Positions 8,852-50,836 of a DNA stretch of 64,000 nt are shown here, one piece after another. The translations under genes were made by a program, and so were the position numbers. How positions within the stretch are numbered: position 1 is the first letter of the stretch; each line of letters starts with the position of its first letter. Under the pieces are notes generated by a model. It searched no databases. It saw only the letters and a list, made by a program, of their open reading frames with translations, and was not told the origin of the DNA. Source of the DNA: Fuerstiella sp. (GTDB lineage: Bacteria; Planctomycetota; Planctomycetia; Planctomycetales; Planctomycetaceae); assembly GCA_024230215.1 (NCBI GenBank), contig JAAERP010000192.1, forward strand, positions 1 through 64,000, given 5' to 3'.

Positions 8852-8852
8852 G

Positions 8853-10484: not shown

Positions 10485-10641
10485 GTCCGTCGCTCAACGA
10501 AATCGTGCACTGCGTATGACCACGACAGATTCTGCAAACACGCCTTGATGCCAACAAATCGTGTGAGGTCTGTTCCTATTTTGGCGGAGTCTTTTAGACT
10601 GCCGAAAAAGCAACACTCACTCCGTTTTGAAGTATAGACGC

Positions 10642-12171
10642 ATGGCAGTTTATCTGGGTATCGATATTGGCACCAGTGGCACCAAAACTCTGGCGATGAA
10701 CGAGGACGGTGCGATCCTTGCAGCCGCGACCGTGGAGTACCCGCTGTACAGTCCGAAGCCGGGCTGGTCCGAGCAGAATCCCGTCGACTGGTGGGCTGCC
10801 TCCGTCAAGAGTGTGAAGAAAGTCATGCGAGCGGCGAAGTTGAAGGCCGCGAGTGTCGGTGGCATCGGCCTGAGCGGACAGATGCACGGCAGCGTGTTTC
10901 TTGATAAGTCAGGCAGCGTCATTCGCCCAGCACTGCTGTGGAACGATCAGCGCACGGCCGCGGAATGTGTCGAGATCGAGAAGCGGGCGGGGGGACGAAA
11001 AAAACTGATCAAGATGGTTGCCAATCCGGCATTGACCGGCTTTACGGCTCCCAAAATTCTGTGGCTGCGCAACAACGAAAAGAAAAACTTCGACAAGACC
11101 GTTCAGATCCTGCTGCCCAAGGACTATGTGCGGTATCGTCTGACCGGAGAATTCGCAACGGAAGTCAGCGACGCGTCCGGAACTCTGCTGCTGGATGTCG
11201 TGAAACGCAGGTGGTCTAAGCGGCTGTTGGGAAAACTGGACCTTGATGCCAGCCTGTTTCCTCGAATGCACGAATCCGAGGACGTGACCGGCGGGCTATC
11301 AGCGATCGCGGCAAAAGCGATGGGCCTGAAAGTTGGTACACCCGTCGTTGGTGGAGGCGGTGACCAGGCAGCCAGCGCCATCGGCAACGGTATTGTTCGC
11401 AAAGGCGTCGTGTCGGCAACGATGGGCACCAGCGGAGTTGTATTTGCACACAGTGACCAGGTTCAGGTCGATCCTGAGGGACGACTGCACACATTCTGCC
11501 ATGCGGTGCGAGGCAAATGGCACGTGATGGGCTGCGTGTTGTCTGCTGGTGGCAGCCTGCAATGGTTCCGCAACGAACTCTGTCAGGCAGAAGTCGCCGC
11601 CGCAAAGAAGAAGAAGGTGGATCCGTATGAATTGATTACTCAACAGGCCGCCGAAGCTCCGGCAGGTTCGGAAGGCCTGTTCTTTCTGCCGTATCTCACT
11701 GGCGAACGCACGCCACATGCCGATCCGAACGCTCGCGGCAGCTGGGTTGGCCTGAGCCTGCGGCATGGCAAAGGGCACATGGCTCGATCCGTGATGGAAG
11801 GAGCCACCTATGCGATGCGCGATTCACTGGAAATCGCGAAGGGCATGAACATACCGGTGAAGGAAATTCGACTTTCCGGCGGCGGAGCCAGAAGTCAGTA
11901 CTGGCGGCAGATGCAGGCCGACATTTATGGACAACCGGTCGTGACGATCAATGCCGAAGAGGGACCAGCGTACGGCGTCGCCTTATTGGCGGCCGCAGGC
12001 ACCGGGGCCTACAAGGACGTGGTCGAAGCCTGCAAGGCGACGATCTCCGTCGTCACAAAAACGGCCGCAAAGCCCGCTGCAAAGAAAACATACAACAAGG
12101 CATACCCCGTGTATCAGCAGTTGTATGCGTCGCTGAAAGATGACTTTGCGGAGATACAGAAGCTGGTGTGA
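10642..12171 (+). CDS. xylB: Xylulokinase (FGGY carbohydrate kinase)
   Basis: N-terminus [19 protein letters not shown] with [12 protein letters not shown], the FGGY_N/FGGY_C architecture, and GGGA motifs. About 510 aa. Confidence 0.9.
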
Positions 12172-12208
12172 ACACAAGTAGTTCAAAAACCCTGGTAGCA
12201 ATCTTGGG

Positions 12209-30471: not shown

Positions 30472-31041
30472 TTAGGCAGGCTGCATGCTGTTGACGAGTA
30501 CGTCGTGGAGGCGGTGTCGGGCGGTATGCAGACGTCGTTTGATCGTTCCGATCGGACTGTCAAACACAACGCTCATTTCCTTCAGCGACTGACCATCAAA
30601 GTAGAAGGCCATCAGTGTGCGCCGGTCCAGATCGCCGAGACGATCAAGGCCGGTGCGCAGCTGCTCTGCGTCTTCCAGTTGCATCAACTCCGCGGCTGGA
30701 CTGTCCGGAGCTTCCTGCAGGACTTCAAACGAAGCGGGCTCACAGGCCGTTTCCGGAGGACGTCGGACAGCTCGGTTGATCGACAGACGTGCTGCGATCT
30801 GGCACAGCCAGCCGCCAAACGCCTTTGGTTCCTTCAGCTGCGACAGCTTACGAAATGCCCGCAGGAAGACTTCCTGAGTCACTTCGTCAGCTTCTGCCGT
30901 ATTGCGCAGCCGCTGCATGACGATGCCGTAAATGCGCGAGTGAAACTCAATGACCAGTTCACCGAAAGCCTCTCGGTTTCCGGCCTGAGCGCGAACGACA
31001 GTATTTGTTAATGTGTCAAGAGACATGATATCAGACTCCAT
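30472..31041 (-). CDS. RNA polymerase ECF-type sigma factor
   Basis: Sigma-70 region 2 (EAFGELVIEFHSRIYGIVMQRL...DEVTQEVFLRAFRKL) and region 4 (LDRRTLMAFYFDGQSLKEMSVVFDSPIGTIKRRLHTAR). No cognate anti-sigma gene lies adjacent. Confidence 0.85.
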   Translation of the reverse strand: MESDIMSLDTLTNTVVRAQAGNREAFGELVIEFHSRIYGIVMQRLRNTAEADEVTQEVFLRAFRKLSQLKEPKAFGGWLCQIAARLSINRAVRRPPETACEPASFEVLQEAPDSPAAELMQLEDAEQLRTGLDRLGDLDRRTLMAFYFDGQSLKEMSVVFDSPIGTIKRRLHTARHRLHDVLVNSMQPA

Positions 31042-32266
31042 GTCTGGAAGGTGGCGTGGCCACCAGGAGGAAAACCGTATAATGGCTCCCGAACGAATTT
31101 TCGGTTGCCGTGAATAAAGGCATGGCCGGTCGTCGGGAACAGAAAATCACAGGGCGGTGCCGACCGCCAGCGGATGCGAGCGAATGCTCGGAAACGGAGG
31201 CAAAGTCGAATCCATCGAAACCAACGGCAACGTGACGCGGAACAAACGTCCGGTCAGTGAGCCTCGGTCTGCTGTTGAAGCGAATCAGATTTCGTCAGGG
31301 AGCATTCGCTCCGGAGAATCCGCGTGTGCGGCTGACGGGAAGCTGAGTTATTCGCTTCAGCTAAGACTTCGACCGAACGCGAGTCCGAGTAGGAGTCCCG
31401 AGACGGACTGCTGCGATAAGGACGATCCAAGCCACGGCTGTTGCCATGACGGCTGATCGTCCGAATACATCGCATGCAGTTGTCTGCCCGGGCGCCGGAC
31501 AGCACGAACGCCTATGCGTTTCGCCGCCGGTTTCTCGGATGGTCGATCTGCGACATGTGCGGGACAGGCAGGACAACCACGAAACTCGACGACGGTCGCA
31601 ATCACATTGCCGCTGGCAATTGTGGTGTTGACGGTCAGAGTATTAATCGTGTTTGTAAGCAGCATTATTCTGCCTTCCTGTAATTCGTCCCGCGCTCTGT
31701 GAGAGCAAGTACGGTTCATGATGGTGCGTCGCTCACTACCACGACGCTGATTGGCAAAAGCCACCTCAGTGGTTCATTTGGAGCTAACGCTCCATCACTG
31801 AGAAACAAAGTACTCGATAATCGACGTGTCAATCCGGCGGACGCCTTCGCTTCCACCGAACAGTTTGGCTCTTCCAATGGTCAGGATAAAGAAGGCTGGC
31901 TTCTTCATCATCTGCACTCTCAGGAAGAGTCACCCGTTTGGAAAATGAAGCGGGGTGAATGCTTCACGGGCTGGATTCGACGAGCGAACCATCAGCCCAT
32001 TTTCTGAAAACTTCCGTAATGACCATATGACAGATGAAACGTCATTATGGTTCGGGAAGTTTATCCGGTAATTCCATTTTTGGAGGGAAATTCCCAGGAA
32101 TGGATGTAAGCCGTGTTGTGGAAATGGTTTAGGCGTCCGTGTGATTGGCCGGAAATTCATAGAATCGACTCTGGCACAGCCTGCCCACCGAATTGCTCCG
32201 AGAATCATCGAACCCGACAGTTAGGGCATGTCCTGTGTTTCGCGGTCAAATGATGGTCTTCGTGGG

Positions 32267-37125: not shown

Positions 37126-38340
37126 TCACAGGATCATCAGGTCCCAATCTTCGAATGCAGTGTCTGTCGCGACACAGTCCACGACCGACACTCGGATCAG
37201 TCCCCACTCTTCCCAGCCATGCTGATCGAACACGCGGTACCAAACAGAGATTTCGCCGGTGAAACCTGGATCCGGTATGACGGTCATTGAATGTCCGTCA
37301 GACAGCAACATCGCTTCGCCGTCGCACCCGCCAAACACCTCGAAAATGAGTTGTTCACCTGGAGTTTCCACATCACTGGCGTAGTCGAGCAGATCGATCG
37401 TGATCGGTGTTGACGCCTGTGTGGTGACGAAGCCGTTTGATGCAGTCGGAGCATCGTTGACAGGGACAACGTCGATGTCGACGTGGGCTGAGGCACTCAG
37501 CACTGGTACTCCGTCGTCGGTGACTGTGAAGTCGAATGACGCGGGGCCGTTAAAATTGGGGTCCGGAGTGAAGATCAGGTTCCAGCCCCCCACACTTTGC
37601 ACGACGCTGCCACCGTGCATTGCGTCAAACTGAAACTGCAAATCGGTGAGGTCGCTTTCCACATCGTCAACAAGGTCGTCTATAGAGATCCAGATGTCTT
37701 CGTCCTCGAGCATCTGGTAGGTCGCGTCGGCTGCGGTGGGAGCGTCGTTTACGGGCAGGATTTCAACCGTTACGCTGCCCCATGTTTCTGCCCCGGCCGG
37801 ATCGATGGCCTGAAACCAGATGTCGATTGTGCCGGAGAGATTGTCTGTCGGAGTGAATTCGGCCGTTTGGCCATCCGACAGGACTTCGATTGTGCCCAGC
37901 CATTCGTCAAAGAACGTAATCGACAGGTCCTGGACGGAATGGTCAGGATCAACCACGGCATCGGACAGATTGAACAGAAACGGCACATCTTCAGACGTTT
38001 GGTAAGACGGGTACAGTGCGATCGGTTCGTCGTTGATCGGCAACACCGAAATGCTCATCATTCCGGAAGTACTGAGAGCCGGATCGCCGTCGTCGGTAAC
38101 TGTCCAGCTCACGGAGGCCGGGCCTGCATAGTCTTCATCCGGCATGAACACCACGTTGGAATAGATGTCGACAATTTCCGCTGTGCCTCCGGTCACGGCG
38201 TCGACTGCAAACGTAAGATTGTCCCACGAAGTTTCAGCATCGAATCCGTGGTCGAGCAACTCGATCCACAGCTCATCGTCTTCCGACGTTGTAAAGTGTG
38301 CGGAAACGGCGGTTGGCGGAGTGTTCTGTTCCGGTGGCAA
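37126..38340 (-). CDS. C-terminal segment: tandem cadherin-like / bacterial Ig-like repeats
   Basis: Three repeats of about 95 aa (PINDEPIAL..., PVNDAPTAADATYQMLEDE..., PVNDAPTASNGFVTTQAST...). This is typical of VCBS/cadherin-like adhesin repeats. Confidence 0.55.
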   Translation of the reverse strand: MPPEQNTPPTAVSAHFTTSEDDELWIELLDHGFDAETSWDNLTFAVDAVTGGTAEIVDIYSNVVFMPDEDYAGPASVSWTVTDDGDPALSTSGMMSISVLPINDEPIALYPSYQTSEDVPFLFNLSDAVVDPDHSVQDLSITFFDEWLGTIEVLSDGQTAEFTPTDNLSGTIDIWFQAIDPAGAETWGSVTVEILPVNDAPTAADATYQMLEDEDIWISIDDLVDDVESDLTDLQFQFDAMHGGSVVQSVGGWNLIFTPDPNFNGPASFDFTVTDDGVPVLSASAHVDIDVVPVNDAPTASNGFVTTQASTPITIDLLDYASDVETPGEQLIFEVFGGCDGEAMLLSDGHSMTVIPDPGFTGEISVWYRVFDQHGWEEWGLIRVSVVDCVATDTAFEDWDLMIL

Positions 38341-40274
38341 TGGTGGATTCTCGGGCGGCAGAGGTGGGGGGGCGGAGGTGTGTCTTCGGGCGGTACGATG
38401 TCCAGGTAGAACGTGTCAACGACTGTGCCACCGTGTTCGTCAATGACGAGTGTCGAGATCAGCGCAAGACCATATAATCCATCCGTTGTCTGAATATGCA
38501 GCGAACGATCCGTTCCCGACCCTGACACAGCGATGCTGCTGTTTGGAACGTGCAGCGATTCCGACGAGTCGACCATAATTGTCAGGTCGCTGACCGCGGT
38601 TTCCACGTCGCCTATGGTGAAGTCGACAGTGAAAGACTCGCCAGCCACTACATGCCGGCGGGGCATGTCTGAAATCGTCGGACGCACATTTACCATGTCG
38701 ATCGCCGAACCATCCAGTCCTTCCATCAATGCACGGTACTTGTGAGCATCTTCAATGGACTGATCCTGGGCGGTCAGCGATCCGAAATTTCCATAGGCGT
38801 TGTCGCTGACTGCCTGCGTGTATTGGTAGTCATACATCGCGGCCACGCCCAGATCGTGCATTCCGTTAATGATCAGTCGTTCGGCGTCATAGATCCTCGG
38901 GCTGACAAACGCTTCCGTAAAGGCAGTCTGAAAGTTCGTCTCTCCGGCGTCGAAGTGCGGTCCCGATTCATACAACACCAGCGGAATCTCGCGGCCGAGT
39001 GTGGATTCGAAGCCAGAGATCAGTTCCTGGTGCTCCTGAACAAAACCCAGCGTAGTGGGAATCGCAGCGAACGCCACGTCCAGTACTTCGTCAGCCGTTG
39101 TCAGGGCAGTGAAGTTGCGTTCGTCGTAGTCCGGCGCAAAGTAGCCTGCAATCGATACAGCATCAAAGTCGTCGCCCAGATGTGTCAGAAGTTCCCGCGT
39201 CATTTCCGGCATCCCGACAGCACTTGCGACGACCCGAACGACGCGATCCTGTTGTCCGGCAAATACGCCTGACCAGATGTCGAAGTCCTCACTTATCTGA
39301 CTGGCGGCGAATTCAATCCGTCCCGGGGCGTCGTCGCCCATCGCCTTCAGCTGATCCGTGATCCAGTGGTAAGCCGGAAACCACGGTAGTGCGTTCCAGA
39401 TTTCGTTCGACCACTCGACGTTGATTTTCAGTTCCGGGTCGAGCGTGTCACGCACCAGCGTCGCGAACTTCTCGACATAGTCGGGGGTCGCCGTGTGCGG
39501 CATGTTGACCCAGATGTCTGTCTGCAGCGTGTTGGCCAGTTCAACAACGTATTCCACCGACATGCCTTTTGCCGTGGTGTCGACCTGTACCTGACGGGCG
39601 TCGGTCAGTTCACGGCGGTCCGACCATTCCAGCACGGCACCGTCTTCATACTCGTGCGTTCCCAGCATCTGAGTAAACCGCAGCGTTTCGAACGGAGCAA
39701 GACGCTCCAGGAACAGTGGATGGAACGGTGAGAAGTCTGCGTCCGGCGTCCAGTTGCGCTGTCCGGCAAAGCTCTGACCTTCATAATCGGGCATCCAGAA
39801 GTTGATGTTCTCCAACGGTCTGTCCGGGTTGATATTTCTGATTTGTAGATACAGCCCCGCACCAGCTGCGTTAACATCGATGTCCGCAAAATGGCGGCCG
39901 CCCTCCATTGTTCCCTCGGCAACAATGCTGTTGACATCCCAGTCGATCGACAGGTCGCCATCGGCAAACGTGCCGTCTCCGTCCCACTCCATGCGATAGA
40001 TTCCCGCCGGGTAATTTCCTGCACCCACGTCGTTGAACATCAGCGTCCCGATCCACTGCTGGATTTCTTCGCCATTACTGTTGGTCCATGAGTCAAGCTG
40101 GGTGGCCCAGCCGTGTTGGTCCTGAGCCACCGGTCGTTGTCCATTCCAGGTGAATTCACCCGTCGCAGTGTTGTATTCGTGCGAGATCCAGCCCCGGGAA
40201 TGTTTGATGGCGTCGGTAAACGTCCAGCCCGCCATCCAGTCGTAGACGCCTTCGACGTTGGTTCCAATCTGCAT
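38193..40274 (-). CDS. Central (putatively catalytic, glycosidase-like) segment of the disrupted secreted protein
   Basis: 693-aa ORF with no signal peptide of its own. It is W/D/G-rich, and a C-terminal beta region precedes the poly-Pro linker. Its last about 45 aa are out of the true frame. Confidence 0.5.
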   Translation of the reverse strand: MQIGTNVEGVYDWMAGWTFTDAIKHSRGWISHEYNTATGEFTWNGQRPVAQDQHGWATQLDSWTNSNGEEIQQWIGTLMFNDVGAGNYPAGIYRMEWDGDGTFADGDLSIDWDVNSIVAEGTMEGGRHFADIDVNAAGAGLYLQIRNINPDRPLENINFWMPDYEGQSFAGQRNWTPDADFSPFHPLFLERLAPFETLRFTQMLGTHEYEDGAVLEWSDRRELTDARQVQVDTTAKGMSVEYVVELANTLQTDIWVNMPHTATPDYVEKFATLVRDTLDPELKINVEWSNEIWNALPWFPAYHWITDQLKAMGDDAPGRIEFAASQISEDFDIWSGVFAGQQDRVVRVVASAVGMPEMTRELLTHLGDDFDAVSIAGYFAPDYDERNFTALTTADEVLDVAFAAIPTTLGFVQEHQELISGFESTLGREIPLVLYESGPHFDAGETNFQTAFTEAFVSPRIYDAERLIINGMHDLGVAAMYDYQYTQAVSDNAYGNFGSLTAQDQSIEDAHKYRALMEGLDGSAIDMVNVRPTISDMPRRHVVAGESFTVDFTIGDVETAVSDLTIMVDSSESLHVPNSSIAVSGSGTDRSLHIQTTDGLYGLALISTLVIDEHGGTVVDTFYLDIVPPEDTPPPPHLCRPRIHHCHRNRTLRQPPFPHTLQRRKTMSCGSSCSTTDSMLKLRGTILRLQSTP

Positions 40275-40622
40275 GTCGTGCGCCGCACCGTGTCGTCAGC
40301 GTCAGCGGGAATCTCGCCCGTCGCCGCGGCCAGCAGTTGACGGTCTTCAAGGTGTTCCAGCGCCAGCGAAGCGACGTGGTTCCGTGAACGGCGTCTCTTC
40401 TGTCGACGATTCTGGACAAGGTGGTTCAGGATATTGGTCGCGTGGAATGAACGTAGCATGTGAATCTCTCGTGAAAGTGAATGGACAGCGAAGTGAACAG
40501 GCGCGCAGAACTGGCCCGTTCGTCTCGTGATGGCGGCGCGCACCATCTCCGTGTTGATTACAGAATGAGGAAATTCAGGCTCCGGCAATGGAGCGGTTGG
40601 CAGTGACGTCTCAGGAAAGGCG

Positions 40623-42512
40623 TCAGGGGACGCGTGCGAGTGTCCACACGATGGTCTCGGCGAACTGCTCAGCGAAATCAGCATCGGCAGCAGTGATCAG
40701 TCTGCCGGATGTGACGACGTCGTCTCTCGATGGGGTAGCACGTCTTAGTGTGAATTCATGCTGAATCTGTTCCAATGCTGCGATGCTGTGTCCCTCGAAG
40801 TATGCAGCATCCGATAGCGCTATCATGCCCAGGCAGATGCCCGCAACGACCCGGTGATCGTCATCCATCACAGCCAGAATGCGTCTGATGTGGACATTCG
40901 CCGGTGCTTCATCGTCCAGACCTTCCATCTGTCCGCCGACAAAGACGACAGCGTCGAACGCTTCGGGGTCAACGTCACTGATCAGCAGGTCTGCCTGAAA
41001 AGGCTGACCGGGATCGTCTTCAGTCGGAGTAATGGACAATCCCGGTGACGCCGTCTTGATGTCACCGCCCTGTGCTTCCAGGATCCGCCGCACCGGAACG
41101 TAGTCCGGATAGTACGTCTGCTGCGGCATTACGAACAGGACCTGCATGCCGTCGATGCGCGGCAGACCGGTCAGGCCAGTTTTATCGGGGAACTTCGATT
41201 CTTCCTGGCGGCCGGCCACGTGGCCATTGGGATCAGTTGTTTCGTCCGTTGCTGCGGGCCAGAGCCCGCTCACGCCGTACCCGCCTGCCACGACCGCCAG
41301 CAACAGCAGCACCCCGACGACAACACGTCCAGGAAGCTGTGCCGCGGAGGTGTTTGGTCGCCGCGAGTCGTATTGGCTGATGACTGACGGCGACTCAGCA
41401 ATCTCCAACTCGTCGATTGCAGCAACGACTTCAGAGGGTGTTTGGAAACGGTCGCTGACGGATTTGGCCATCATCTTTCTGACGATCGCGTTGACGCCTG
41501 GTGGTATCGAACGGTCGGCCTCTGCCAGCGGCGTCGGTTCCAGCAGCATGTGCGATGAGATTTTTTGCAGGTGGCTGCCCGTGGGAAACGGCGGTCGTCC
41601 TGTCAGCAGAAAGTAGAACGTGCAGCCCAGACTGTAGATGTCTGCACGGATGTCCGCCGAACGCGCGTTGTCGGCCTGTTCGGGCGCAATATAGTCCGGA
41701 GTCCCAAGCGCCAGGTTGGCTGCGGTGATGCCAACGGACTCCTGAGGTTCAGATTCTTCAGGCGTCATCGTAATGAACCTGGCCAGGCCGAAATCCAGTA
41801 TCTTGACGTTATTATCTGGTGTCGTGATCAGGTTTTGAGGCTTGATATCTCGGTGTACGAGACGATGCTCGTGTGCATGCTGTAATCCGAGTGCGACTGA
41901 ACGAACAGCTTCGGTGGCCTTTGCAGAACTCAGTGGGCCGCGTTTCTCGACCAGCCGGTCCAGGCTGATGCCTTCCACATACTCCATCACCAGCAGATGC
42001 ATGTCGCCCGCCTGTTCAGCGTCGTGAACGGTGACGATGTTTGGATGCGATAACCGGGAAGCGGCGCGGACTTCCGTGCGAAACCGGCTGACAGCGGTCG
42101 GACTTGTCATGAACTCTCCGCGAATGACCTTCACCGCCACGGTACGGTCCATCAGCCGATGCTCTGCCTTAAACACCTCACCCATACCGCCCGCACCAAG
42201 AGGCTCCAGAATGCGGTACCTCGGATGGTCCGACAGTCGTGCCATCACATCGACGGGTCTCTGGTTAGCAGCGGCATCCGGGTTGGTGTCAGCTATGCCG
42301 GTCATGCCCGTGTCAGCGTGCCTGACAGGTTGAACGGCTGCCCGGGCAAGATGAACCATGTGGTCGTCGGGAATTCCCTGGAGCGATTCACAACAGGACT
42401 GGCACGATTCAATGTGCTGTACCACCCGATCCGAAGTGTCCATTGCGAGCCGGCCGAGGACAAAGTCCGACAGCTGAGCCGCAGTTGGATGGTCGGCAGT
42501 CTGGGCGTTCAT
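40623..42512 (-). CDS. Ser/Thr protein kinase with N-terminal anti-sigma zf-HC2 motif, TM helix and C-terminal DJ-1/PfpI domain
   Basis: zf-HC2 H-x3-C-x2-C motif (HIESCQSC). Hanks kinase motifs LGAGGMGEVF, AVK, HRDIKPQNL, DFGLA, APE. TM segment VVVGVLLLLAVVAGGYGV. DJ-1/PfpI fold (DAVVFVGG, nucleophile-elbow VAGICLG, VVTSGRLITAA). Confidence 0.85.
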   Translation of the reverse strand: MNAQTADHPTAAQLSDFVLGRLAMDTSDRVVQHIESCQSCCESLQGIPDDHMVHLARAAVQPVRHADTGMTGIADTNPDAAANQRPVDVMARLSDHPRYRILEPLGAGGMGEVFKAEHRLMDRTVAVKVIRGEFMTSPTAVSRFRTEVRAASRLSHPNIVTVHDAEQAGDMHLLVMEYVEGISLDRLVEKRGPLSSAKATEAVRSVALGLQHAHEHRLVHRDIKPQNLITTPDNNVKILDFGLARFITMTPEESEPQESVGITAANLALGTPDYIAPEQADNARSADIRADIYSLGCTFYFLLTGRPPFPTGSHLQKISSHMLLEPTPLAEADRSIPPGVNAIVRKMMAKSVSDRFQTPSEVVAAIDELEIAESPSVISQYDSRRPNTSAAQLPGRVVVGVLLLLAVVAGGYGVSGLWPAATDETTDPNGHVAGRQEESKFPDKTGLTGLPRIDGMQVLFVMPQQTYYPDYVPVRRILEAQGGDIKTASPGLSITPTEDDPGQPFQADLLISDVDPEAFDAVVFVGGQMEGLDDEAPANVHIRRILAVMDDDHRVVAGICLGMIALSDAAYFEGHSIAALEQIQHEFTLRRATPSRDDVVTSGRLITAADADFAEQFAETIVWTLARVP

Positions 42513-42641
42513 ATTCCGCTCCGCACGATTCGTGAATGAGGCCTTGAAATCCCTCTACTGTGTACATTGAACAATGTGATATGGGACGAGCTCGGAGAAT
42601 CTGACACCCCGATTACGAAATTCTGCAGATTTCCAGGAATG

Positions 42642-43232
42642 TCAGTCCAGCAGCCCCACGGCGGCTTGTCGCAGTCGTGCCAGAACGCGGGATTTTGCCT
42701 GATATACCGACGCGATTGAGATCCGCAGTTCAGTGGCCACTTCTGCCGCCGGCTTTTCCTGCAGGGCAACGCCTTCGAATGCCTGCCAGGTAGGCTCCTC
42801 AACGTCGTCGCGAATCGAATCGAGCAACTTTCGTGTGACGATCAGGTCATGCTCTTCATCCCACTGTCGACTTAGATCGCTGTTGTCGTCGGTGAGCTGA
42901 TTCAGGGCCTCAAGGAAGCTGGTGTCCCCTCCCACCAGCGGTCGCAGTCGCCGGGTTCTCCAGTGATCTCGCAGGCAGTTGACCGAAATCGCTCGCAGCC
43001 ACGTTCGGAACGCTCCGGGCCGCCGATTGTGTTGAAACTGCGGCAACCTCCTCAGGACGACCAGTAACACATCCTGCACGACATCGTCGCGATCGGATCG
43101 CTCCAGCTGTTGTCGGGACAACCACCCCAGAATCAACGGCGCATAAATATCATTCAGCTGCTGCCATGCAGTCTCATCCTGCTGATTCTGCAATCGGTCC
43201 AGGAGACTGAATGATGTCGTCGCCACTGACAC
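42642..43232 (-). CDS. RNA polymerase ECF-type sigma factor (STK-associated type)
   Basis: Region 2 (DVVQDVLLVVLRRLPQF...FRTWLRAISVNCLRDHWR) and region 4 (EGVALQEKPAAEVATELRISIASVYQAKSRVLARLR). Immediately upstream of the kinase/anti-sigma fusion. Confidence 0.85.
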   Translation of the reverse strand: MSVATTSFSLLDRLQNQQDETAWQQLNDIYAPLILGWLSRQQLERSDRDDVVQDVLLVVLRRLPQFQHNRRPGAFRTWLRAISVNCLRDHWRTRRLRPLVGGDTSFLEALNQLTDDNSDLSRQWDEEHDLIVTRKLLDSIRDDVEEPTWQAFEGVALQEKPAAEVATELRISIASVYQAKSRVLARLRQAAVGLLD

Positions 43233-43546
43233 AGCTTTCTACTATGACTGGTGCCCGCCCAGGGTGTGTGACATGAGATACATTTGCAGATCACACGACG
43301 GTTGTCGACATCAAAATGCTGCCATCGGCTCAGGCGATTCACGCCAGGCAACTCATGACACGCTCATTTCGCCCGGATATCACAGAGAGCTGCAGTATTG
43401 CGGCTTCGATCAGTGATCCGCGATCGAATCAAAGTACCACTGCGGCATCAGTGGGCGGAAGATACAAAAAGTTGTATCCAGGCGGCGACATCTGCAATTG
43501 AAGTTGTCGGAGCCACTGCCCGTGAATACGACGTTGTTCGTCATCC

Positions 43547-43801
43547 TTACGTGCTGCTCACTCGGATTTCGTTGCGGATCTTTCGAGTGCTGCTGATGGC
43601 GCGAAGGGCCTCCTGAGCATACTGTTTTTCGTGCCAGTTGTTGACCGAACCGGTTAACAGCACGGTGTCTTTGGACAGCCGTACCGTCACGTTCGCCAGT
43701 TGCAATCTTTCGACCGTCCGCTGCATCATTTCGTGAAGATGGTGATCTGTATCGATACGAATCGAGCGAGCGAGATTTCGAGACGATGAGTCTGATTGCA
43801 T
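43547..43801 (-). CDS. Small BON-domain protein
   Basis: C-terminus RLQLANVTVRLSKDTVLLTGSVNNWHEKQYAQEALRAISSTRKIRNEIRV matches the BON (OsmY-like) domain. ATG at 43801; the longer ORF up to 44065 is probably an upstream extension. Confidence 0.55.
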   Translation of the reverse strand: MQSDSSSRNLARSIRIDTDHHLHEMMQRTVERLQLANVTVRLSKDTVLLTGSVNNWHEKQYAQEALRAISSTRKIRNEIRVSST

Positions 43802-43847: not shown

Positions 43848-46343
43848 GTGTTTTTAAGGTGCGGTGTCTCAGATGGAGTCGGTATGACAGCCGCGAGTTC
43901 TGGATGGAATCCCGCCGACGTCCCTCGTCCATCGGTTGACGGGCAGCCTCTGGCGGCGAACGCTGCGCGACTGCTGGAGGCGCTGGAATATCTGGGGCAT
44001 CCGCTGCCGGAGAAGACGATCTTAGCATTGCGAACTGCCATCCACGCGGAGAGCAGCAATGACATTCAGCAGTTGCTCGATCAGCATGTTTTGTTCGCCG
44101 CGTCCATTAATCCGGAACTGCGAGTCAAAGTTGGTCGCGGGCCTGCAGACCCCGTTATTCAGCAGGCCGGTTTTACGCCGGTTCTGGTGAAAGTGATTAA
44201 TGACGCAACCGTGACACGTCGCCTGCAGATCAGCAGCCCACAGGCCGGGCCGGTGTATGCGGGCACGGGTGAAGTGATTCTGAAACGCCAGGCTCAGACC
44301 GAATTGAAGATTAACGAAAACGTGAAGGGCGATCGCCGCTTTCTGGAGGTCGAAATATTCGATCAGTCACCGATGACGTCTCGCCTGAGTGGTTTGCAGG
44401 CCGAATACCTGCTCGCTTTAATCTACAGCAGCGAAGCAGGTCAGCGCGAAGCCACCATCATTTTTGACATCGGTGAAGGAACGCAGGAATTCGGTTTTCG
44501 CAGCGAAGTTCCTGTGCTGTTCAGCGTGGCCCCCGCGATTCCCGTGACGCTGAAGATCAACGATTTTGACGGAAGGCCGACGACGGCTCGCCTTGAGTTC
44601 CGCGACAGGGACGGTCGCGTTTATCCGCCCCAGGCCAAACGACTGGCCCCCGATTTCTTTTTTCAACCACAGATTTATCGCAATGACGGCGACGCCGTTC
44701 TGTTGCCTCCAGGGGAGTTTGAACTTCTTTCCAACCGCGGTCCGGAATATCTGCGCATCAGGCAGGACATCGCGGTGATCGAAGGCGGCGAAAACACCGT
44801 GGAAGTGAAACTGGAGCGGTGGATCAATCCCATGGACTTCGGATTCTACTGTGGCGATCATCACATTCACGGCGCTGGATGTTCGCACTACGATAACCCG
44901 ACTCAGGGTGTGACTCCGCAGGATATGTTCGCTCAGGTGAAGGGTGAAGGGTTGAATGTTGGCTGCGTGCTGACATGGGGACCGTGCTTTGACTTTCAGC
45001 GAAACTATTTTTCACCGCTCGCCGACACGGTCAGCGAGCGTTTGAATATTCTGAAGTACGACCTGGAAATCAGTGGCTTCGGTTCTGCGGCATTGGGGCA
45101 CGTCTGTTTGCTGAACCTGAAGAATCAGACCTACCCGGGTTCAGAAGGCACCGCGACAAAAGGATGGCCAAAGTGGACAGTGCCGGTGATGAGATGGGCC
45201 AAAGAACAGGGCGGAATCACCGGATATCCTCATTCTGCGCTGCACGTCGATCCTCAGCAGGCGGCCAGATGGCAGCTTTCAAAACTTGACACGAACTCGA
45301 ATGGCACCCTTTCTGCAACCGAAGCAGCAGCCGGATTGCTGGCAGAAGCGTTCGCACGAACTGACGAGGACACGAACGGTCAACTGACGCAGGTTGAACT
45401 GCAGAAGAGTGCCAATCGTGCGGCCGATACGCTGCCAAACGTCGCACTGCCGTCCATGAACGGCGGGGGCGCGATGGAAATTTTTGTCAGCACCAGCGAA
45501 GGCGTGTGTGACTTCATCAGCGCAATGGACACGGCCAGAATTTCCGAATGGAATACGTGGTATCACCTCATGAATTGTGGGTTTCCCTTAAAGTTGAGCG
45601 GAGAAACCGACTTCCCCTGCATGAGCAGCCGTCGGGTTGGTCAGGGCCGCGTGTATGTACAATTGGGAGACGTGCAGCAGGTTGACTTTCCCACGTGGTG
45701 TCAGGGAATCGCTGCCGGACAGTCTTATGTTTCAGACGGTTTTGCGCACGCCGTGAAACTTACTGTCAACGGCCAGTCGCCAGGCCGTTCCGACGTCGCC
45801 CTGGGCAGTTCGACGTCCGTTACCGTCAAAACGAGCGTCTCCTTTGCGCCGGAACAACCCAAGGCGGTGGCCTATGGAACGCTGTTGCCGTCAGCAGGTC
45901 GCAGAATGGTGGGGGACACGATCAATCTGCACGCTCCCAGAAACACGGGCTTTGTGCGAGGTGGCCAGCGACTGGTCGAGGTCGTCGTTAACGGCAGGGT
46001 CGCTGGATCAAAGTCGGTGGCAGCGGACGGAAAGATCCACGATCTGGAGTTCACCGTACCGATCCACCGCAGCAGCTGGGTTGCCATTCGACAATTCCCC
46101 CAACTGCACACAAACCCCGTCAACGTGATCATTGACAATCAACCAATCAGGGCCTCACGCGAAAGCGCACTTTGGTGCGCCGAAGCCGTCCGCCTGCTGT
46201 GGCACAATCGACGTCAGTTCATTTCTGAAGCTGAACAGCCAGCCGCAAAGATTGCTTACACAAACGCCCTGGAAAGGTTTTTCGGGATTGCCGATGAATC
46301 GGATGCCAACAGCAGGAAGGTGAATCGTTTCGCGCTGCAGTAA
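43848..46343 (+). CDS. Putative metal-dependent hydrolase (PHP/CehA-McbA-like H-x-H motif) with an inserted EF-hand pair
   Basis: FYCGDHHIHGAGCSHYD metal-binding motif. Two canonical 12-residue EF-hand loops, DTNSNGTLSATE and DEDTNGQLTQVE (nt 45288-45398). 831 aa; the start could be the ATG at 43884. Confidence 0.6.
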   Translation: MFLRCGVSDGVGMTAASSGWNPADVPRPSVDGQPLAANAARLLEALEYLGHPLPEKTILALRTAIHAESSNDIQQLLDQHVLFAASINPELRVKVGRGPADPVIQQAGFTPVLVKVINDATVTRRLQISSPQAGPVYAGTGEVILKRQAQTELKINENVKGDRRFLEVEIFDQSPMTSRLSGLQAEYLLALIYSSEAGQREATIIFDIGEGTQEFGFRSEVPVLFSVAPAIPVTLKINDFDGRPTTARLEFRDRDGRVYPPQAKRLAPDFFFQPQIYRNDGDAVLLPPGEFELLSNRGPEYLRIRQDIAVIEGGENTVEVKLERWINPMDFGFYCGDHHIHGAGCSHYDNPTQGVTPQDMFAQVKGEGLNVGCVLTWGPCFDFQRNYFSPLADTVSERLNILKYDLEISGFGSAALGHVCLLNLKNQTYPGSEGTATKGWPKWTVPVMRWAKEQGGITGYPHSALHVDPQQAARWQLSKLDTNSNGTLSATEAAAGLLAEAFARTDEDTNGQLTQVELQKSANRAADTLPNVALPSMNGGGAMEIFVSTSEGVCDFISAMDTARISEWNTWYHLMNCGFPLKLSGETDFPCMSSRRVGQGRVYVQLGDVQQVDFPTWCQGIAAGQSYVSDGFAHAVKLTVNGQSPGRSDVALGSSTSVTVKTSVSFAPEQPKAVAYGTLLPSAGRRMVGDTINLHAPRNTGFVRGGQRLVEVVVNGRVAGSKSVAADGKIHDLEFTVPIHRSSWVAIRQFPQLHTNPVNVIIDNQPIRASRESALWCAEAVRLLWHNRRQFISEAEQPAAKIAYTNALERFFGIADESDANSRKVNRFALQ

Positions 46344-46566: not shown

Positions 46567-48663
46567 TTAGTGCGAACTATCTTCTGTCAGTCGTCTCGCC
46601 AGCAGGTTCAGGAACAAGCCGACATCCGTCACGATCCCTGTTGATTCAACGCTTCCGCGGTCGGCAAGCTTGGTGACGACGGCCGGAGAAATATCGACGC
46701 AGACCAGCCGTATACCTGCGCGAGTCATATTGCCCGTGCCAATGGCATGCAGCATCGAAGCAAGCATGACGATCATGTCGGCCCCGTCGACCGCTTTGGC
46801 ATAGGCTGCCTGCGCTTCGAAGAGATCCATCAGGGTATCGGGCAGAGGACCATCGTCCCGGATCGAACCGGCCAGGATATAATCGACGTCATTCTTCACA
46901 CATGCGTACATGACCCCGTCAGTAACGACTCCCTGCTCGACCGCCGCTCGGATGCTGCCAGCGGAACGAATTCGATTGATCGCCTTGATGTGGTGCTGAT
47001 GTCCTCCATGCACGCCGACGCCGCGGGCCAGGTCCACACCCAGAGATGTACCGAATAGATTCATTTCGATGTCGTGCGTTGGCAGAGCATTTCCGGTGAG
47101 CAGTACATCCAGGTATCCATGGTTGATGATACTGGCCAGATGCGGCCCCCCGCCCGTATGGATCACCACCGGCCCGGCGACAAATACGATGCGTCCGCTG
47201 CGAGCCCGGATTCTGCGCATCTCCCACGCCAGTTCTTCGACAGCCGTTTCAACTCGCCGCTCGCTTGAAACGCCGGCACTCATGAAGGAAAACTCGTCCC
47301 TGGCAGCGACACTCAGCAGGCGTTTGACCCTCACACCTTCGACACCGCAGACAACCTGGTCTCCCTCCTGTAGGTCGCGAATCAGTGAACAACGAGCCGA
47401 CGTGGCGTTCTGGTCTGTGTTGATGACGACCACAGCATCCATGCGTTGATTTGTCGCACGAATCCACTGTTCACCCACTCGTACTTCCGTGGGATAAATC
47501 GTCGTCGAATAAAACGCCTGCGGCGCGACACCATTCTGTGTCACGACCTCCATGCGTGCGTCGGTGTGTTCTGTGACGGCGACCGCCCCGAGCGGTTGCA
47601 GAGTGTTGAGGATAAGTTCGAGCCGTTCCTCATTGGGAGCCGTCACCCGCACGCGCGCCGTCGAGTCCAGATCGTTCCGCTGCCCGACGATAAACTGATC
47701 GACGCGAAAACCGCCCCCGCCAACGGTGATGATGTCAAACAGTCGACTCATCAGTCCGCTGTCCAGCAGATGACCCTTCAACTGAATGTTCGTGTGGCGG
47801 ATCGGAGATTCGATCCGGCCTTCCGCGGGCGTGCGGACATCCTGCCTGCCGATCAGACATAGACATTTTGCCGCTCCTCCGGCCAGCATGAATTCGTCCA
47901 GCGGTGTCGTCCGCACATCGTAGCCCCAGGCCTCCAGGCGACGACGCAATTCGTTCGAGACATGGTTCGTAATCAGGGTGTTATCGATACGGACGGCATT
48001 ACACGCGAAACGCTGGGCATCAGATTCGCTGACCTCAAGTCGCCTGTCGGGCGGCACGCGGCGGTGAATCTCACCCAGAGAAGCTTCGTCGAACGCCGCC
48101 GGAAAATACACGACCCGGCCGCCGGGCAACGGAAAGAAGCAGGTGTCCAGGTGGTAGAATCTCTCATCGATCAGACGCAGAGAGACGACTTCGACGTTGA
48201 GTCTCTCGCTCATTAACTGGTGCGATTCAAGCGAGCTTCGCGTCCCATAACCAGCCCAGACGCAATCCGCCTCGTTGTCTGCCAGCAGCGCATCTCCTTC
48301 GCCTTCGAACGTGTCGTCTCCGCCCAGCGGTGCAATTTCGCAGCCTGAGTCGGAAAACCAATCGCAGAACAGAGGGGACTCCGACTGTCGCTGGAGGAAT
48401 CGAAACACACTGGGGATGAAACGATCGCCAACCAACAGGCCGGCATTGGCAACAAAGCACATATCCGGGAGTGCGGGAGCGCCTTCGATCACCGCGACGC
48501 TCGTCAGGCCGGCCACGATCTCATACAGCCGATTCCATTGCTCGCCGGCGACATCGTTGCGAGCGCGTCCGATCTGTCCCTGCATCCAGGGATTGATGAC
48601 GTAGTGCACTCCGAAGTGAGTGGGGCGGCACATTACAATTCCCGGCCGATCGTTGGTCATCAT
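46567..48663 (-). CDS. ArgZ/AgrE-like bifunctional arginine dihydrolase (amidinotransferase-fold N-domain + TIGR00300/LOR-SDH-like C-domain)
   Basis: N-domain of about 270 aa in the guanidino-group-modifying superfamily, ending in the catalytic-Cys context AGGAAKCLCL. The C-domain of about 420 aa has G-rich motifs (TVGGGGFRV, VAGPVVIHTGGGPH). Size and architecture match cyanobacterial ArgZ/AgrE. Confidence 0.6.
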   Translation of the reverse strand: MMTNDRPGIVMCRPTHFGVHYVINPWMQGQIGRARNDVAGEQWNRLYEIVAGLTSVAVIEGAPALPDMCFVANAGLLVGDRFIPSVFRFLQRQSESPLFCDWFSDSGCEIAPLGGDDTFEGEGDALLADNEADCVWAGYGTRSSLESHQLMSERLNVEVVSLRLIDERFYHLDTCFFPLPGGRVVYFPAAFDEASLGEIHRRVPPDRRLEVSESDAQRFACNAVRIDNTLITNHVSNELRRRLEAWGYDVRTTPLDEFMLAGGAAKCLCLIGRQDVRTPAEGRIESPIRHTNIQLKGHLLDSGLMSRLFDIITVGGGGFRVDQFIVGQRNDLDSTARVRVTAPNEERLELILNTLQPLGAVAVTEHTDARMEVVTQNGVAPQAFYSTTIYPTEVRVGEQWIRATNQRMDAVVVINTDQNATSARCSLIRDLQEGDQVVCGVEGVRVKRLLSVAARDEFSFMSAGVSSERRVETAVEELAWEMRRIRARSGRIVFVAGPVVIHTGGGPHLASIINHGYLDVLLTGNALPTHDIEMNLFGTSLGVDLARGVGVHGGHQHHIKAINRIRSAGSIRAAVEQGVVTDGVMYACVKNDVDYILAGSIRDDGPLPDTLMDLFEAQAAYAKAVDGADMIVMLASMLHAIGTGNMTRAGIRLVCVDISPAVVTKLADRGSVESTGIVTDVGLFLNLLARRLTEDSSH

Positions 48664-49261: not shown

Positions 49262-50836
49262 ATGTCAATTCGCCGACCGACTTTCGTTTGTTTCATTGTG
49301 CTCTCCGCAGTTTTCTCGAATCCTGCAACCGCGGCACAAAAGCCCAATATCGTCTTCATCCTTGCGGATGATCTCGGCTGGCGTGATCTGAGTAACGAAG
49401 GTTCGACTTACTACGAGAGTCCGCATATCGACCGGATCGCCACGGGTGGAATGAAGTTCACTCGAGGTTATGCAACGTGTCAGGTGTGCAGTCCTTCGCG
49501 CGCGAGCATTCTCACAGGCAAGTATCCGACAAATCATGGCATCACGACCTGGATTGGCGATCGCTCCGGCGACGCGTGGCGCGGCACCGGACGACACGAC
49601 AGCCATCTGCCACCAGCGTACGAGCACAATCTGCGTGCCGACGAAGTCACGCTTGCTGAAGTCCTTAGCGACGCAGGCTATGAGACTTTCTTTGCGGGCA
49701 AGTGGCACCTGGGGAGCGAAGGTTCCTGGCCAACCGATCACGGTTTTAAGGTCAACAAAGGGGGCTGGGACGTGGGCAGTCCACGGGGTGGGTATTTCTC
49801 TCCGTGGCAAAATCCAAACCTTTCGTCTGGTCCCGCGGGCGAGTCATTGCCGATCCGGCTGGGACGCGAGACCGCGGCGTTCATTGAGAAGAATCAGGAC
49901 AAACCGTTCCTGGCGAACCTGTCGTTTTATTCGGTGCACGGGCCAATTCAGACAACGCCAGCGCTGTGGAAGAAGTACCGCGACAAGGCAGCCGATGCCG
50001 GACTGGCCGACGAGCGGTTCATCTTCGATCGACGCCTGGCAGTGCGCCAGGTTCAGGATTGCCCGATTTACGCGGGCATGATCGAGTCGATGGATGATGC
50101 GGTCGGCATTGTCCTGGAAACGCTCGACGAACTGGGCCTTGCCGAGAATACGATCGTTTGCTTCACGTCGGATAATGGTGGCGTGTCGTCCGGCGACGCC
50201 TATTCGACCAGCAACACTCCGTTCCGTGGCGGCAAGGGACGCCAGTGGGAAGGTGGCATTCGCGAACCGTTCTACATCAACGTACCTGGTGTTACAAAAG
50301 CGAACTCGACCAGTGCCGTGCCGGTTAGCGGCGTCGACTGGTATCCAACGCTGCTTGAACTCGCCGGCGTACCTGCGCCCGCCGAACAGAATGTTGACGG
50401 TGTGAGTCTTGTGCCACTACTCAAAGGCAACTCGATCACAGACCGCTCCCTGTTCTGGCACTACCCTCACTACGGTAACCAGGGCGGCGAACCTTCTTCG
50501 ATCATTACCGAAGACAATTGGAAGCTCATCCATTATCACGAGGATGGTCACGACGAGTTGTACGACCTCGACACGGATCCGGTCGAACAGAAGGATGTCG
50601 CAGGCGCCGAGCCAGACCGGGCCAAAGCTCTACGCACGAAACTCGACACGTGGCTGAAGTCCACAAATGCCAGATTCCCGACAAAGGACCCGCAGTTCGA
50701 TCCGAGCAAACGAACGGCTCGTTGGGAGTCGCTCAGGACGCGCGGCACGGCCAGCCTCGAAGCTCGCCACACCACCTACCTCAATTCCACCTACGTCCCG
50801 AACGAGAACTGGTGGGGAAGCTCGCCAAAGGATTAG
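49262..50836 (+). CDS. Sulfatase, secreted
   Basis: C-x-P-x-R motif (CQVCSPSRASILTGKY), IVFILADDLGW, and a signal peptide. Confidence 0.9.
   Translation: MSIRRPTFVCFIVLSAVFSNPATAAQKPNIVFILADDLGWRDLSNEGSTYYESPHIDRIATGGMKFTRGYATCQVCSPSRASILTGKYPTNHGITTWIGDRSGDAWRGTGRHDSHLPPAYEHNLRADEVTLAEVLSDAGYETFFAGKWHLGSEGSWPTDHGFKVNKGGWDVGSPRGGYFSPWQNPNLSSGPAGESLPIRLGRETAAFIEKNQDKPFLANLSFYSVHGPIQTTPALWKKYRDKAADAGLADERFIFDRRLAVRQVQDCPIYAGMIESMDDAVGIVLETLDELGLAENTIVCFTSDNGGVSSGDAYSTSNTPFRGGKGRQWEGGIREPFYINVPGVTKANSTSAVPVSGVDWYPTLLELAGVPAPAEQNVDGVSLVPLLKGNSITDRSLFWHYPHYGNQGGEPSSIITEDNWKLIHYHEDGHDELYDLDTDPVEQKDVAGAEPDRAKALRTKLDTWLKSTNARFPTKDPQFDPSKRTARWESLRTRGTASLEARHTTYLNSTYVPNENWWGSSPKD

Follow-up and report, generated by a model that had tools for sequence, protein, structure and literature searches.

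A gene for a sigma factor of the extracytoplasmic function (ECF) class beside a receptor Ser/Thr kinase gene is an arrangement typical of the phylum in Planctomycetes, and the kinase-associated groups (ECF43, ECF59-62, formerly ECFSTK1-4, ECF217, ECF267 and ECF283) are treated as being without an anti-sigma factor: the sigma2.2 patch has lost its DAED/DxxD residues, and phosphorylation restores negative charge in sigma2.2 (PMC7826278, PMC8103513, PMC13147305, PMC4937300). Here we describe a locus of Fuerstiella sp. in which a sigma factor with an intact acidic patch is encoded directly upstream of a 629-aa fusion protein containing, from the N-terminus, a zinc-binding anti-sigma (ZAS) domain, a complete Hanks-type Ser/Thr kinase domain, a single transmembrane (TM) helix and a domain of DJ-1/PfpI fold. 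The locus lies on contig JAAERP010000192.1, of which positions 1 to 64,000 were analysed (this 64,000-nucleotide stretch is the window, and all coordinates refer to it). Among the readings considered we prefer, with about an even chance of being right, one by analogy with PknB and its phosphorylation of RshA: joined in cis to the anti-sigma domain, the kinase would free the sigma factor by phosphorylating its own polypeptide.

The juxtaposition of an ECF gene and a gene for a single-pass receptor kinase with a variable extracytoplasmic domain is likewise found in EcfP-PknT (Vibrio parahaemolyticus), EcfK-PknS (Xanthomonas citri) and planctomycetal ECFSTK1-4/ECF59-62. The ECF43/ECFSTK sigma factors lack the acidic patch, are activated by phosphorylation and have no anti-sigma factor, whereas the Fuerstiella sigma factor keeps the patch and its kinase carries a ZAS domain. 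Among anti-sigma factors, ChrR of R. sphaeroides, RslA of M. tuberculosis, RsiW of B. subtilis and DdvA of M. xanthus have the same H...HxxxCxxC signature as the Fuerstiella N-terminus and the helix pattern predicted for it; they too are encoded directly after their own ECF sigma factor and are membrane-tethered with an extracytoplasmic C-terminal domain, but, unlike the Fuerstiella protein, have no kinase between the anti-sigma domain and the membrane, and their release occurs by proteolysis, redox change or conformational change. The M. tuberculosis Hanks receptor kinase PknB is likewise linked to ECF control, since it phosphorylates the anti-sigma factor RshA and so frees SigH (PMC13147305); a corresponding phosphorylation in the Fuerstiella protein is inferred. 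PknB and its anti-sigma factor are separate proteins encoded apart, with sensing by PASTA domains, whereas the Fuerstiella kinase and anti-sigma domain form one polypeptide with a DJ-1-like domain. RseA is a further anti-sigma factor phosphorylated by PknB.

The sigma factor and the anti-sigma/kinase fusion protein

The two genes and the domains of the fusion protein are located as follows.

42642-43232, minus strand: ECF sigma factor gene, 196 aa, GTG start (open reading frame (ORF), Pfam and NCBIfam matches)
40623-42512, minus strand: fusion-protein gene (anti-sigma, Hanks kinase, TM helix, DJ-1/PfpI-like), 629 aa
42333-42491, minus strand: class I zinc-binding anti-sigma domain, residues 8-60 (invariant residues, profile matches, AlphaFold2 (AF2) model)
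41439-42218, minus strand: Hanks-type Ser/Thr kinase domain, residues 99-358 (Pkinase match, catalytic motifs)
41259-41324, minus strand: single TM helix, residues 397-418 (Kyte-Doolittle hydropathy, flanking charges)
40647-41144, minus strand: predicted extracytoplasmic DJ-1/PfpI-fold domain, residues 457-622 (Pfam, AF2, Foldseek)

An earlier reading of the window by eye and ORF list (the sequence-only reading) had placed the gene pair at 40623-43232; both ORFs lie exactly there, on the minus strand. The fusion protein is 100% identical to MCP4854270.1, ‘protein kinase [Fuerstiella sp.]’; such proteins are currently annotated merely as ‘protein kinase’ or ‘putative intracellular protease/amidase’.

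The motif HIESCQSC(C) is located at 42390-42416 (minus strand), and the putative zinc ligands are H8 and H33-x3-C37-x2-C40, an HxxxCxxC motif with a further His ~25 residues before it. In an alignment of 30 full-length homologues (38-77% identity), H8, P9, L14, F17, G20, H33, C37 and C40 were invariant, equalling K128, HRD, DFG and APE of the kinase, and C41, L44 and D50 were conserved in at least 90%. PF13490 had been annotated beforehand in ~22 of 120 homologues. A profile was built from 31 N-termini and searched against all PDB sequences; it matched DdvA (1.7e-6), ChrR (4.8e-5), RslA (7e-4) and RsiW (0.011), and nothing else in that search was significant besides these anti-sigma matches, the second listed match being a 991-aa CHAT-domain chain over the same aligned segment as DdvA. 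H8 falls in the profile alignment on His6 of ChrR, which we take to be the distal zinc ligand. As modelled by AF2, the N-terminus forms four helices (11-18, 24-36, 38-46 and 50-60), with a predicted local distance difference test score (pLDDT) of 86-90 over residues 11-40 and a mean of 71.5. Foldseek with this model returned anti-sigma factors (RslA, ChrR, DdvA, RsiW) as 14 of its 15 matches, with a root-mean-square deviation of 1.5-2.0 Å over about 50 residues and an E-value of about 1, which is what so short a helical unit (50 residues) should give. On the family evidence as a whole we regard the N-terminus as a predicted class I, ChrR-like ZAS domain, which would bind the adjacent sigma factor. 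One residue lies outside the canonical ZAS signature: Cys41 (42390-42392, minus strand), at least 90% conserved, directly follows the zinc motif to give HxxxCxxCC.

One genome per species was scanned for related kinases, yielding 80 loci (numbered, e.g. L081), and all ORFs of these loci were searched with four hidden Markov models, one each for the sigma factor, the kinase, the anti-sigma region and the DJ-1 domain. A closely related sigma gene was present within 2.5 kb upstream of 14 of the 25 kinases with an anti-sigma region but of only 2 of the 62 without it (odds ratio 38, Fisher p 7e-8). When the C-terminal domain was of DJ-1 type and upstream DNA was available, a 193-196-aa sigma factor was encoded directly upstream on the same strand in every case (10/10: the window, L001, L011, L044 from Kolteria novifilia Pan216, L081, L082, L084 from Tuwongella immobilis, L085, L086 and L087); L083 ends at a contig edge and stands outside this count.

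The 196-aa sigma factor matched Sigma70_r2 (E 5e-9) and, weakly, Sigma70_r4_2 (1.4e-3) of Pfam, and with 60 bits (E 2e-16) it exceeded the cut-off of 42.9 bits of the TIGR02937 sigma70-ECF model. It consists of sigma2 and sigma4 alone in ~200 aa, which places it among ECF (group IV) sigma factors, and the nearest solved proteins are ECFs regulated by anti-sigma factors: sigma-H (6in7), CnrH, RpoE and R. sphaeroides SigE. Its family is tight (>120 clusters, 48-89% identity). The sigma2.2 acidic patch is intact (D47-R-D49-D50-V-V-Q53-D54); among 119 family sigmas position 47 is acidic in 100%, position 49 is acidic in 98%, and D50 and Q53 are each present in 100%. The exchange of the acidic DAED/DxxD patch for uncharged residues with a phosphorylatable Thr/Ser, by which the ECF43 type is recognized, was not found in this sigma factor. 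Because the DxDDxxQ patch is kept at 98-100%, the sigma factor is not of ECF43 type, and as the patch is acidic across the family it should therefore need no charge-restoring phosphate. Thus the sequence-only reading, which took the locus as an instance of documented ECF-kinase coupling, had used the wrong frame: the documented sigma factors have neither acidic patch nor anti-sigma factor, and here both are present.

The same evidence bears on an explanation of the ECF43/ECFSTK kind, in which nothing is sequestered, the kinase activates the sigma factor by phosphorylating it, and the zinc motif serves the structure or the dimerisation of the kinase. The 119-member sigma alignment shows conservation of Ser118 and Ser121 in the sigma2-sigma4 linker, where EcfK has functional phosphosites; PknS, likewise, has a conserved N-terminal extension with no known role (PMC13147305). 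This explanation is nevertheless unlikely, given the retained DxDDxxQ patch, an N-terminus that matches anti-sigma domains from solved sigma complexes down to the distal His ligand of ChrR, and a motif whose presence predicts that of the sigma gene. Alongside release from the anti-sigma domain, Ser118/Ser121 may, by analogy with EcfK, provide an extra phospho-input to the sigma factor.

The kinase domain is complete, as had been claimed from the letters alone: the Pfam Pkinase model matched residues 99-358 (E 1e-52), and every catalytic motif was found (Gly-rich G106-x-G108-G109, K128, E147, H220-R221-D222, N227, D240-F-G242 and A276-P-E278), with T263/T271 as the activation-loop Thr residues. 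The catalytic residues were invariant in the 30 homologues. The sole strong hydrophobic segment of the protein, VVVGVLLLLAVVAGGYGVSGLW (residues 397-418, positions 41259-41324), follows the kinase; its 19-residue Kyte-Doolittle mean peaks at 2.34, and it is flanked by Arg on the N side and by Asp/Glu on the C side. Nearly all fused representatives have one TM helix between the kinase and the DJ-1 domain. Since there is a single TM helix with this charge bias, and since standalone homologues of the DJ-1 domain have N-terminal signal peptides, the orientation is predicted to be N-in/C-out with the DJ-1 domain in the periplasm. This prediction agrees with the topology first proposed, a single TM helix and an extracytoplasmic C-terminus.

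A class I anti-sigma domain, a single TM helix and an extracytoplasmic domain, in this order, are also typical of proteins subject to regulated intramembrane proteolysis. The fusion protein could be a conventional membrane anti-sigma factor, with the DJ-1-like domain as the target or protector of site-1 cleavage and the kinase serving other substrates. Each of the closest solved sigmas is under the control of an anti-sigma factor, and proteolytic release is known for some of these sigmas. However, every member has a ~300-aa kinase plus linker, with invariant catalytic residues, separating the anti-sigma domain from the membrane, which argues that the kinase belongs to the same signal path, and no site-1 or site-2 protease gene was found near the sigma/kinase pair. 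We give this explanation a low probability and retain release driven by the fused kinase.

The DJ-1/PfpI-like domain and the modular family

The C-terminal domain matched DJ-1_PfpI (PF01965) over residues 457-622 with E 1.5e-17 and 64 bits against a cut-off of 26.6. An AF2 model of residues 440-629, made from a 110-sequence alignment, had a pLDDT of 95.9. In a Foldseek search of the PDB with this model, the best match was P. aeruginosa PfpI (8r3n; E 1.2e-15, TM-score 0.82), followed by matches to DR1199 (2vrn), 4hcj, PH1704 and human DJ-1 among others (E 1e-15 to 1e-12, TM-score about 0.8), and the top 50 matches were all DJ-1/PfpI proteins. The sequence-only reading had named failure to match this fold as what would overturn it; model, structure search and Pfam instead agree on the fold. 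Compared with the solved members (8r3n, 2vrn, Brachyspira 4hcj, PH1704 and human DJ-1), the Fuerstiella domain has the same fold with the elbow Cys in register, but its identity to them is 16-26%, it has no catalytic His, it is predicted to be extracytoplasmic and it is fused to a kinase. Known DJ-1/PfpI members are cytoplasmic enzymes or chaperones. The fold is also used for signal input in regulators of the AraC family whose N-terminal DJ-1/PfpI (GATase1-like) domain binds a ligand; these are cytoplasmic one-component regulators without membrane, kinase or sigma factor.

The AGICLG elbow motif is located at 40827-40844 (minus strand), and its Cys560 is in register with the catalytic Cys of PfpI/DJ-1D (‘ASICHG’ motif); no other cysteine of the protein lies beyond the membrane. 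Of the 110 aligned members, 97 keep Cys560, and in its place 9 have Gly, 2 Asn, 1 Asp and 1 Ser. An acidic residue occupies position 470 in 109 members (Asp 101, Glu 8), and G526 is invariant. From a manual alignment with the human DJ-1 sequence, we take Asp470 to be at the position of DJ-1 Glu18 and G526-G527 to be the oxyanion Gly-Gly. No catalytic His is evident in the alignment of the 110 members, none being conserved beside Cys560 (where Leu follows) or at the position of DJ-1 His126 or PfpI His101. The scores with the equivalog/subfamily models TIGR01382, NF040823 (PfpI) and TIGR01383 (DJ-1) were 53.1, 22.8 and 35.1 bits against cut-offs of 139, 330 and 131. With scores so far below the cut-offs and no Cys-His(-Glu) set, the domain belongs neither to the PfpI-type proteases/deglycases nor to the DJ-1 glyoxalases III.

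An exhaustive search of 1.84 billion representatives yielded 691 relatives of the DJ-1 domain (E <= 1e-3). The best of them occur as anti-sigma + kinase + TM + DJ-1 proteins; as kinase + TM + DJ-1 proteins, some of which may be truncated gene calls; as DJ-1 proteins of ~200-250 aa with an N-terminal signal-like helix; as ~270-aa proteins with a TM helix and then a DJ-1 domain; and as secreted proteins with 2-5 tandem DJ-1 copies. This distribution supports the existence of an extracytoplasmic clade of the DJ-1 fold, so far as location can be predicted. One further relative, P0121, is a 110-aa hypothetical protein of Fuerstiella sp. that is 63-66% identical to the central part of the DJ-1 domain; it represents a fragmentary gene call or else the remnant of a paralogue in a related metagenome-assembled genome (MAG).

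The kinase + DJ-1 architecture was present in 113 of the 120 best homologues, across Planctomycetota (Fuerstiella, Kolteria, Tuwongella, Singulisphaera and Pirellulaceae). A DJ-1 sensor had been called unusual; it is the dominant architecture among these best matches, and is unusual solely in being uncharacterised. No periplasmic DJ-1 sensor, and no combination of DJ-1/PfpI with a kinase in Planctomycetes, was found in the limited collection of literature searched. The sigma/fusion pair is thus an ordinary member of a large, unstudied, phylum-wide planctomycetal family. Other anti-sigma/kinases linked to a sigma gene carry WD40 (L006, L010, L012), Kelch (L046) or FGE-sulfatase (L014) domains at the C-terminus, or a region without Pfam match. 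As these domains fill the same place, the C-terminal position appears to hold an input module: judging from the architectures, the conserved chassis is the sigma factor with the anti-sigma-kinase-TM protein, and DJ-1 is one of several interchangeable inputs.

The outer domain might instead be primarily a tethered periplasmic enzyme (deglycase, glyoxalase, amidase or isocyanide-hydratase-like) and no sensor. The nucleophile Cys, the Gly-Gly oxyanion position and an acid at the Glu18 position are conserved (isocyanide hydratase uses Asp there), and homologous domains are found as secreted single and tandem-repeat proteins. However, the domain has no His equivalent to PfpI His101 or DJ-1 His126, and 13 of 110 members have exchanged the Cys for Gly, Asn, Asp or Ser while keeping the architecture. 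Gly is likewise the elbow residue of 4hcj, the nearest solved sequence, WD40 and Kelch propellers, which are not enzymes, take the same chassis position, and the scores lie far under the PfpI and DJ-1 equivalog cut-offs. We consider a tethered enzyme improbable; the range of architectures in which the domain occurs argues for a binding or sensing module, possibly enzyme-derived, rather than a conserved catalyst. That its signal is a carbonyl, a redox signal or a peptide, as first proposed, is a guess.

Tandem arrays of 2-3 anti-sigma-kinase paralogues with no adjacent sigma gene were observed in L013, L018, L021 and L033 (Gemmataceae/Isosphaeraceae MAGs). These kinases may act on sigma factors encoded elsewhere, or on each other.

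A proposed model for release of the sigma factor

In the model that we prefer, the N-terminal ZAS domain would hold the co-encoded ECF sigma factor at the inner membrane in the rest state. The input would come through the periplasmic DJ-1-like domain, most likely when a small ligand, an oxidant or an electrophile occupies or modifies the Cys560/Asp470 pocket, or alternatively by altered oligomerisation of the DJ-1 type. Such a change would alter the dimer state of the Hanks kinase; a change in dimerisation is the usual route by which receptor Ser/Thr kinases are switched on. The active kinase would then phosphorylate its own anti-sigma domain or linker, and perhaps also Ser118/Ser121 of the sigma factor, and the sigma factor, once released or made competent, would bind RNA polymerase and transcribe its own operon together with the secreted cadherin-like gene downstream of the kinase gene. 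Taken whole, from ZAS sequestration through periplasmic control of the kinase and cis-phosphorylation to release, we hold the model as likely to be right as wrong.

Several observations weigh against it. The Pfam zf-HC2 match of the fusion protein (residues 12-40, E 0.0026) reached 18.3 bits, under the cut-off of 22.2, and the NCBIfam antisigma model gave E 0.0023; what had been called a textbook anti-sigma zinc motif is present and invariant in the family but falls short in Pfam, and the weak score is rescued by that family conservation and by the profile matches to solved anti-sigma factors. No sigma gene is adjacent to 11 of the 25 kinases with an anti-sigma domain. The fusion protein has no assignable phosphosite, and it carries His where the family linker has its best-conserved Thr (PDDT). 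The loss of Cys560 in 12% of members (13/110) means that thiol chemistry is not a universal input. As to autoregulation and the regulon, no dyad motif resembling an ECF promoter was common to 17 sigma upstream regions beyond shuffled controls; the cadherin-like downstream gene is conserved in the near clade and not family-wide; and, against an intact 1124-aa orthologue in L081, its copy in the window is broken near 40275-40300 and 38328-38394 and so extends over three frames. These frameshifts reflect either decay or assembly error.

That the zinc site itself senses cytoplasmic oxidants as an RsrA-like thiol-disulfide switch, with the outer domain only modulating, is highly improbable, for although the conserved (at least 90%) Cys41 after HxxxCxxC makes CxxCC, His8 serves as first ligand in the manner of the ChrR type, whose zinc anti-sigma factors are to our knowledge not thiol redox sensors, and the invariant kinase and the variable outside module would be left without a reason.

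The family combines an intact sigma patch with an invariant, kinase-fused anti-sigma domain, the opposite of the picture of kinase-linked ECFs given in reviews and in the current ECF classification. More broadly, and tentatively, since we think it rather doubtful, it may represent an undescribed form of ECF control: an anti-sigma factor with its own Hanks kinase, from which a ZAS-held sigma factor would be freed by signal-driven autophosphorylation instead of proteolysis or direct activation of the sigma factor, on a Planctomycetota-wide chassis with swappable periplasmic sensors, the DJ-1 version of which would read the chemical state of a single periplasmic Cys or bind secreted DJ-1-domain partners such as those encoded directly downstream in Kolteria and L087. 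If the preferred model holds, ECF sigma factors and Hanks kinases, the two main non-two-component signalling systems of bacteria, would be joined in one polypeptide, many planctomycetal ECF-kinase pairs would have to be reinterpreted, and the DJ-1/PfpI fold would have its first role as an extracytoplasmic input domain.

The downstream gene, candidate regulatory DNA and neighbouring genes

The gene following the kinase gene and the non-coding segments compared with locus L081 are as follows.

37129-40459, minus strand: downstream cadherin/Big_9-like gene, secreted protein of ~1100 aa (Big_9/Cadherin_5 matches, synteny)
40460-40622, minus strand: spacer between the kinase gene and the downstream gene (alignment with L081)
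43276-43316, minus strand: conserved 41-nt block 5′ of the sigma gene, candidate promoter/operator (comparison with L081)

In L081, L082 and L083, whose kinases are 77%, 43% and 45-46% identical to the window copy, a 909-1124-aa protein is encoded after the kinase on the same strand, while the flanking genes are entirely different. The downstream protein has an N-terminal leader of planctomycete type, LEDRxLLA (LEDRQLLAA in the window), followed by a ~630-aa domain and four cadherin/Big_9 repeats. Searches with the ~630-aa domain gave no Pfam, NCBIfam or PDB sequence match; it is well conserved, at 87% identity to L081 and 56-58% to L082 and L083. A stretch ‘EWSNEIWN’ within this domain recalls what we take to be the NE acid/base motif of clan GH-A glycosidases. 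In tblastn with the L081 protein, the window matched at 40286-38394 in frame -1 (87% identity, its residues 59-689) and at 38328-37129 in frame -3 (75% identity, its residues 725-1124).

Other loci have different genes after the kinase. In L044 (NZ_CP036279.1), the gene directly downstream, at 8217-12200 (plus strand), encodes 1327 aa and six DJ-1/PfpI repeats (Pfam 4e-65). The gene after the kinase in L087, at 8109-9905 (plus strand), encodes 598 aa with DJ-1_PfpI (weak), Cadherin and HemolysinCabind (RTX) repeats, and so bridges the DJ-1-repeat and cadherin kinds of neighbour. The next gene in L085 encodes an 844-aa protein with a weak DUF6259 match, L086 has a 1376-aa cadherin/FG-GAP protein two genes further on, and no co-oriented downstream gene was found in L001, L011 and L084. 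A large secreted repeat protein is thus, as predicted from these loci, a recurrent but non-universal neighbour of the kinase. The same DJ-1 fold in two of the downstream proteins leads to the speculation that sensing proceeds through DJ-1-type protein-protein contacts.

The sequence-only reading had taken the downstream gene as a plausible regulon target. This held in part: because the three closest loci keep the gene next to the kinase although their flanking genes are different, a functional link between the sigma/kinase pair and the cadherin-like gene is plausible from synteny, but the association does not extend to the family as a whole.

The 41-nt block TTTTGATGTCGACAACCGTCGTGTGATCTGCAAATGTATCT, located 44-84 nt before the sigma start codon, recurs almost unchanged in L081; elsewhere, the DNA upstream of the sigma gene is poorly conserved between the window and L081. 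The spacer at 40460-40622 is 89% identical to L081, a higher value than its coding flanks would lead one to expect and far above that of the non-coding DNA nearby. Near 40546 the downstream gene has another possible in-frame ATG, and part of the spacer may be coding if this is the true start. The spacer contains no terminator-like site, and RNA structure in it was not significant (z -1.4). A scan for consensus sigma-70 promoters and terminators gave nothing above chance. A ‘CAAC-N10-12-TGC’ pattern 5′ of the sigma and downstream genes in the near clade was rejected: it had been picked by eye and post hoc, and, on a rough estimate, a pattern so short would have about 20 chance matches in the window.

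In the vicinity of the kinase gene, no PP2C phosphatase and no FHA protein were found. The sigma and kinase ORFs are separated by a 129-nt gap (42513-42641), in which the terminator scan revealed no minus-strand terminator-like site. The two ORFs share a reading frame, and the gap holds two stop codons; the shared frame is probably a coincidence. The other genes noted in the window are listed below.

43547-43738, minus strand: small BON-domain ORF, upstream of the sigma gene on the same strand
43848-46343, plus strand: 831-aa ORF without Pfam match
46567-48663, minus strand: ArgZ-like arginine dihydrolase / LOR-SDH fusion
49262-50836, plus strand: sulfatase gene
30472-31146, minus strand: second ECF sigma factor (Sigma70_ECF type)

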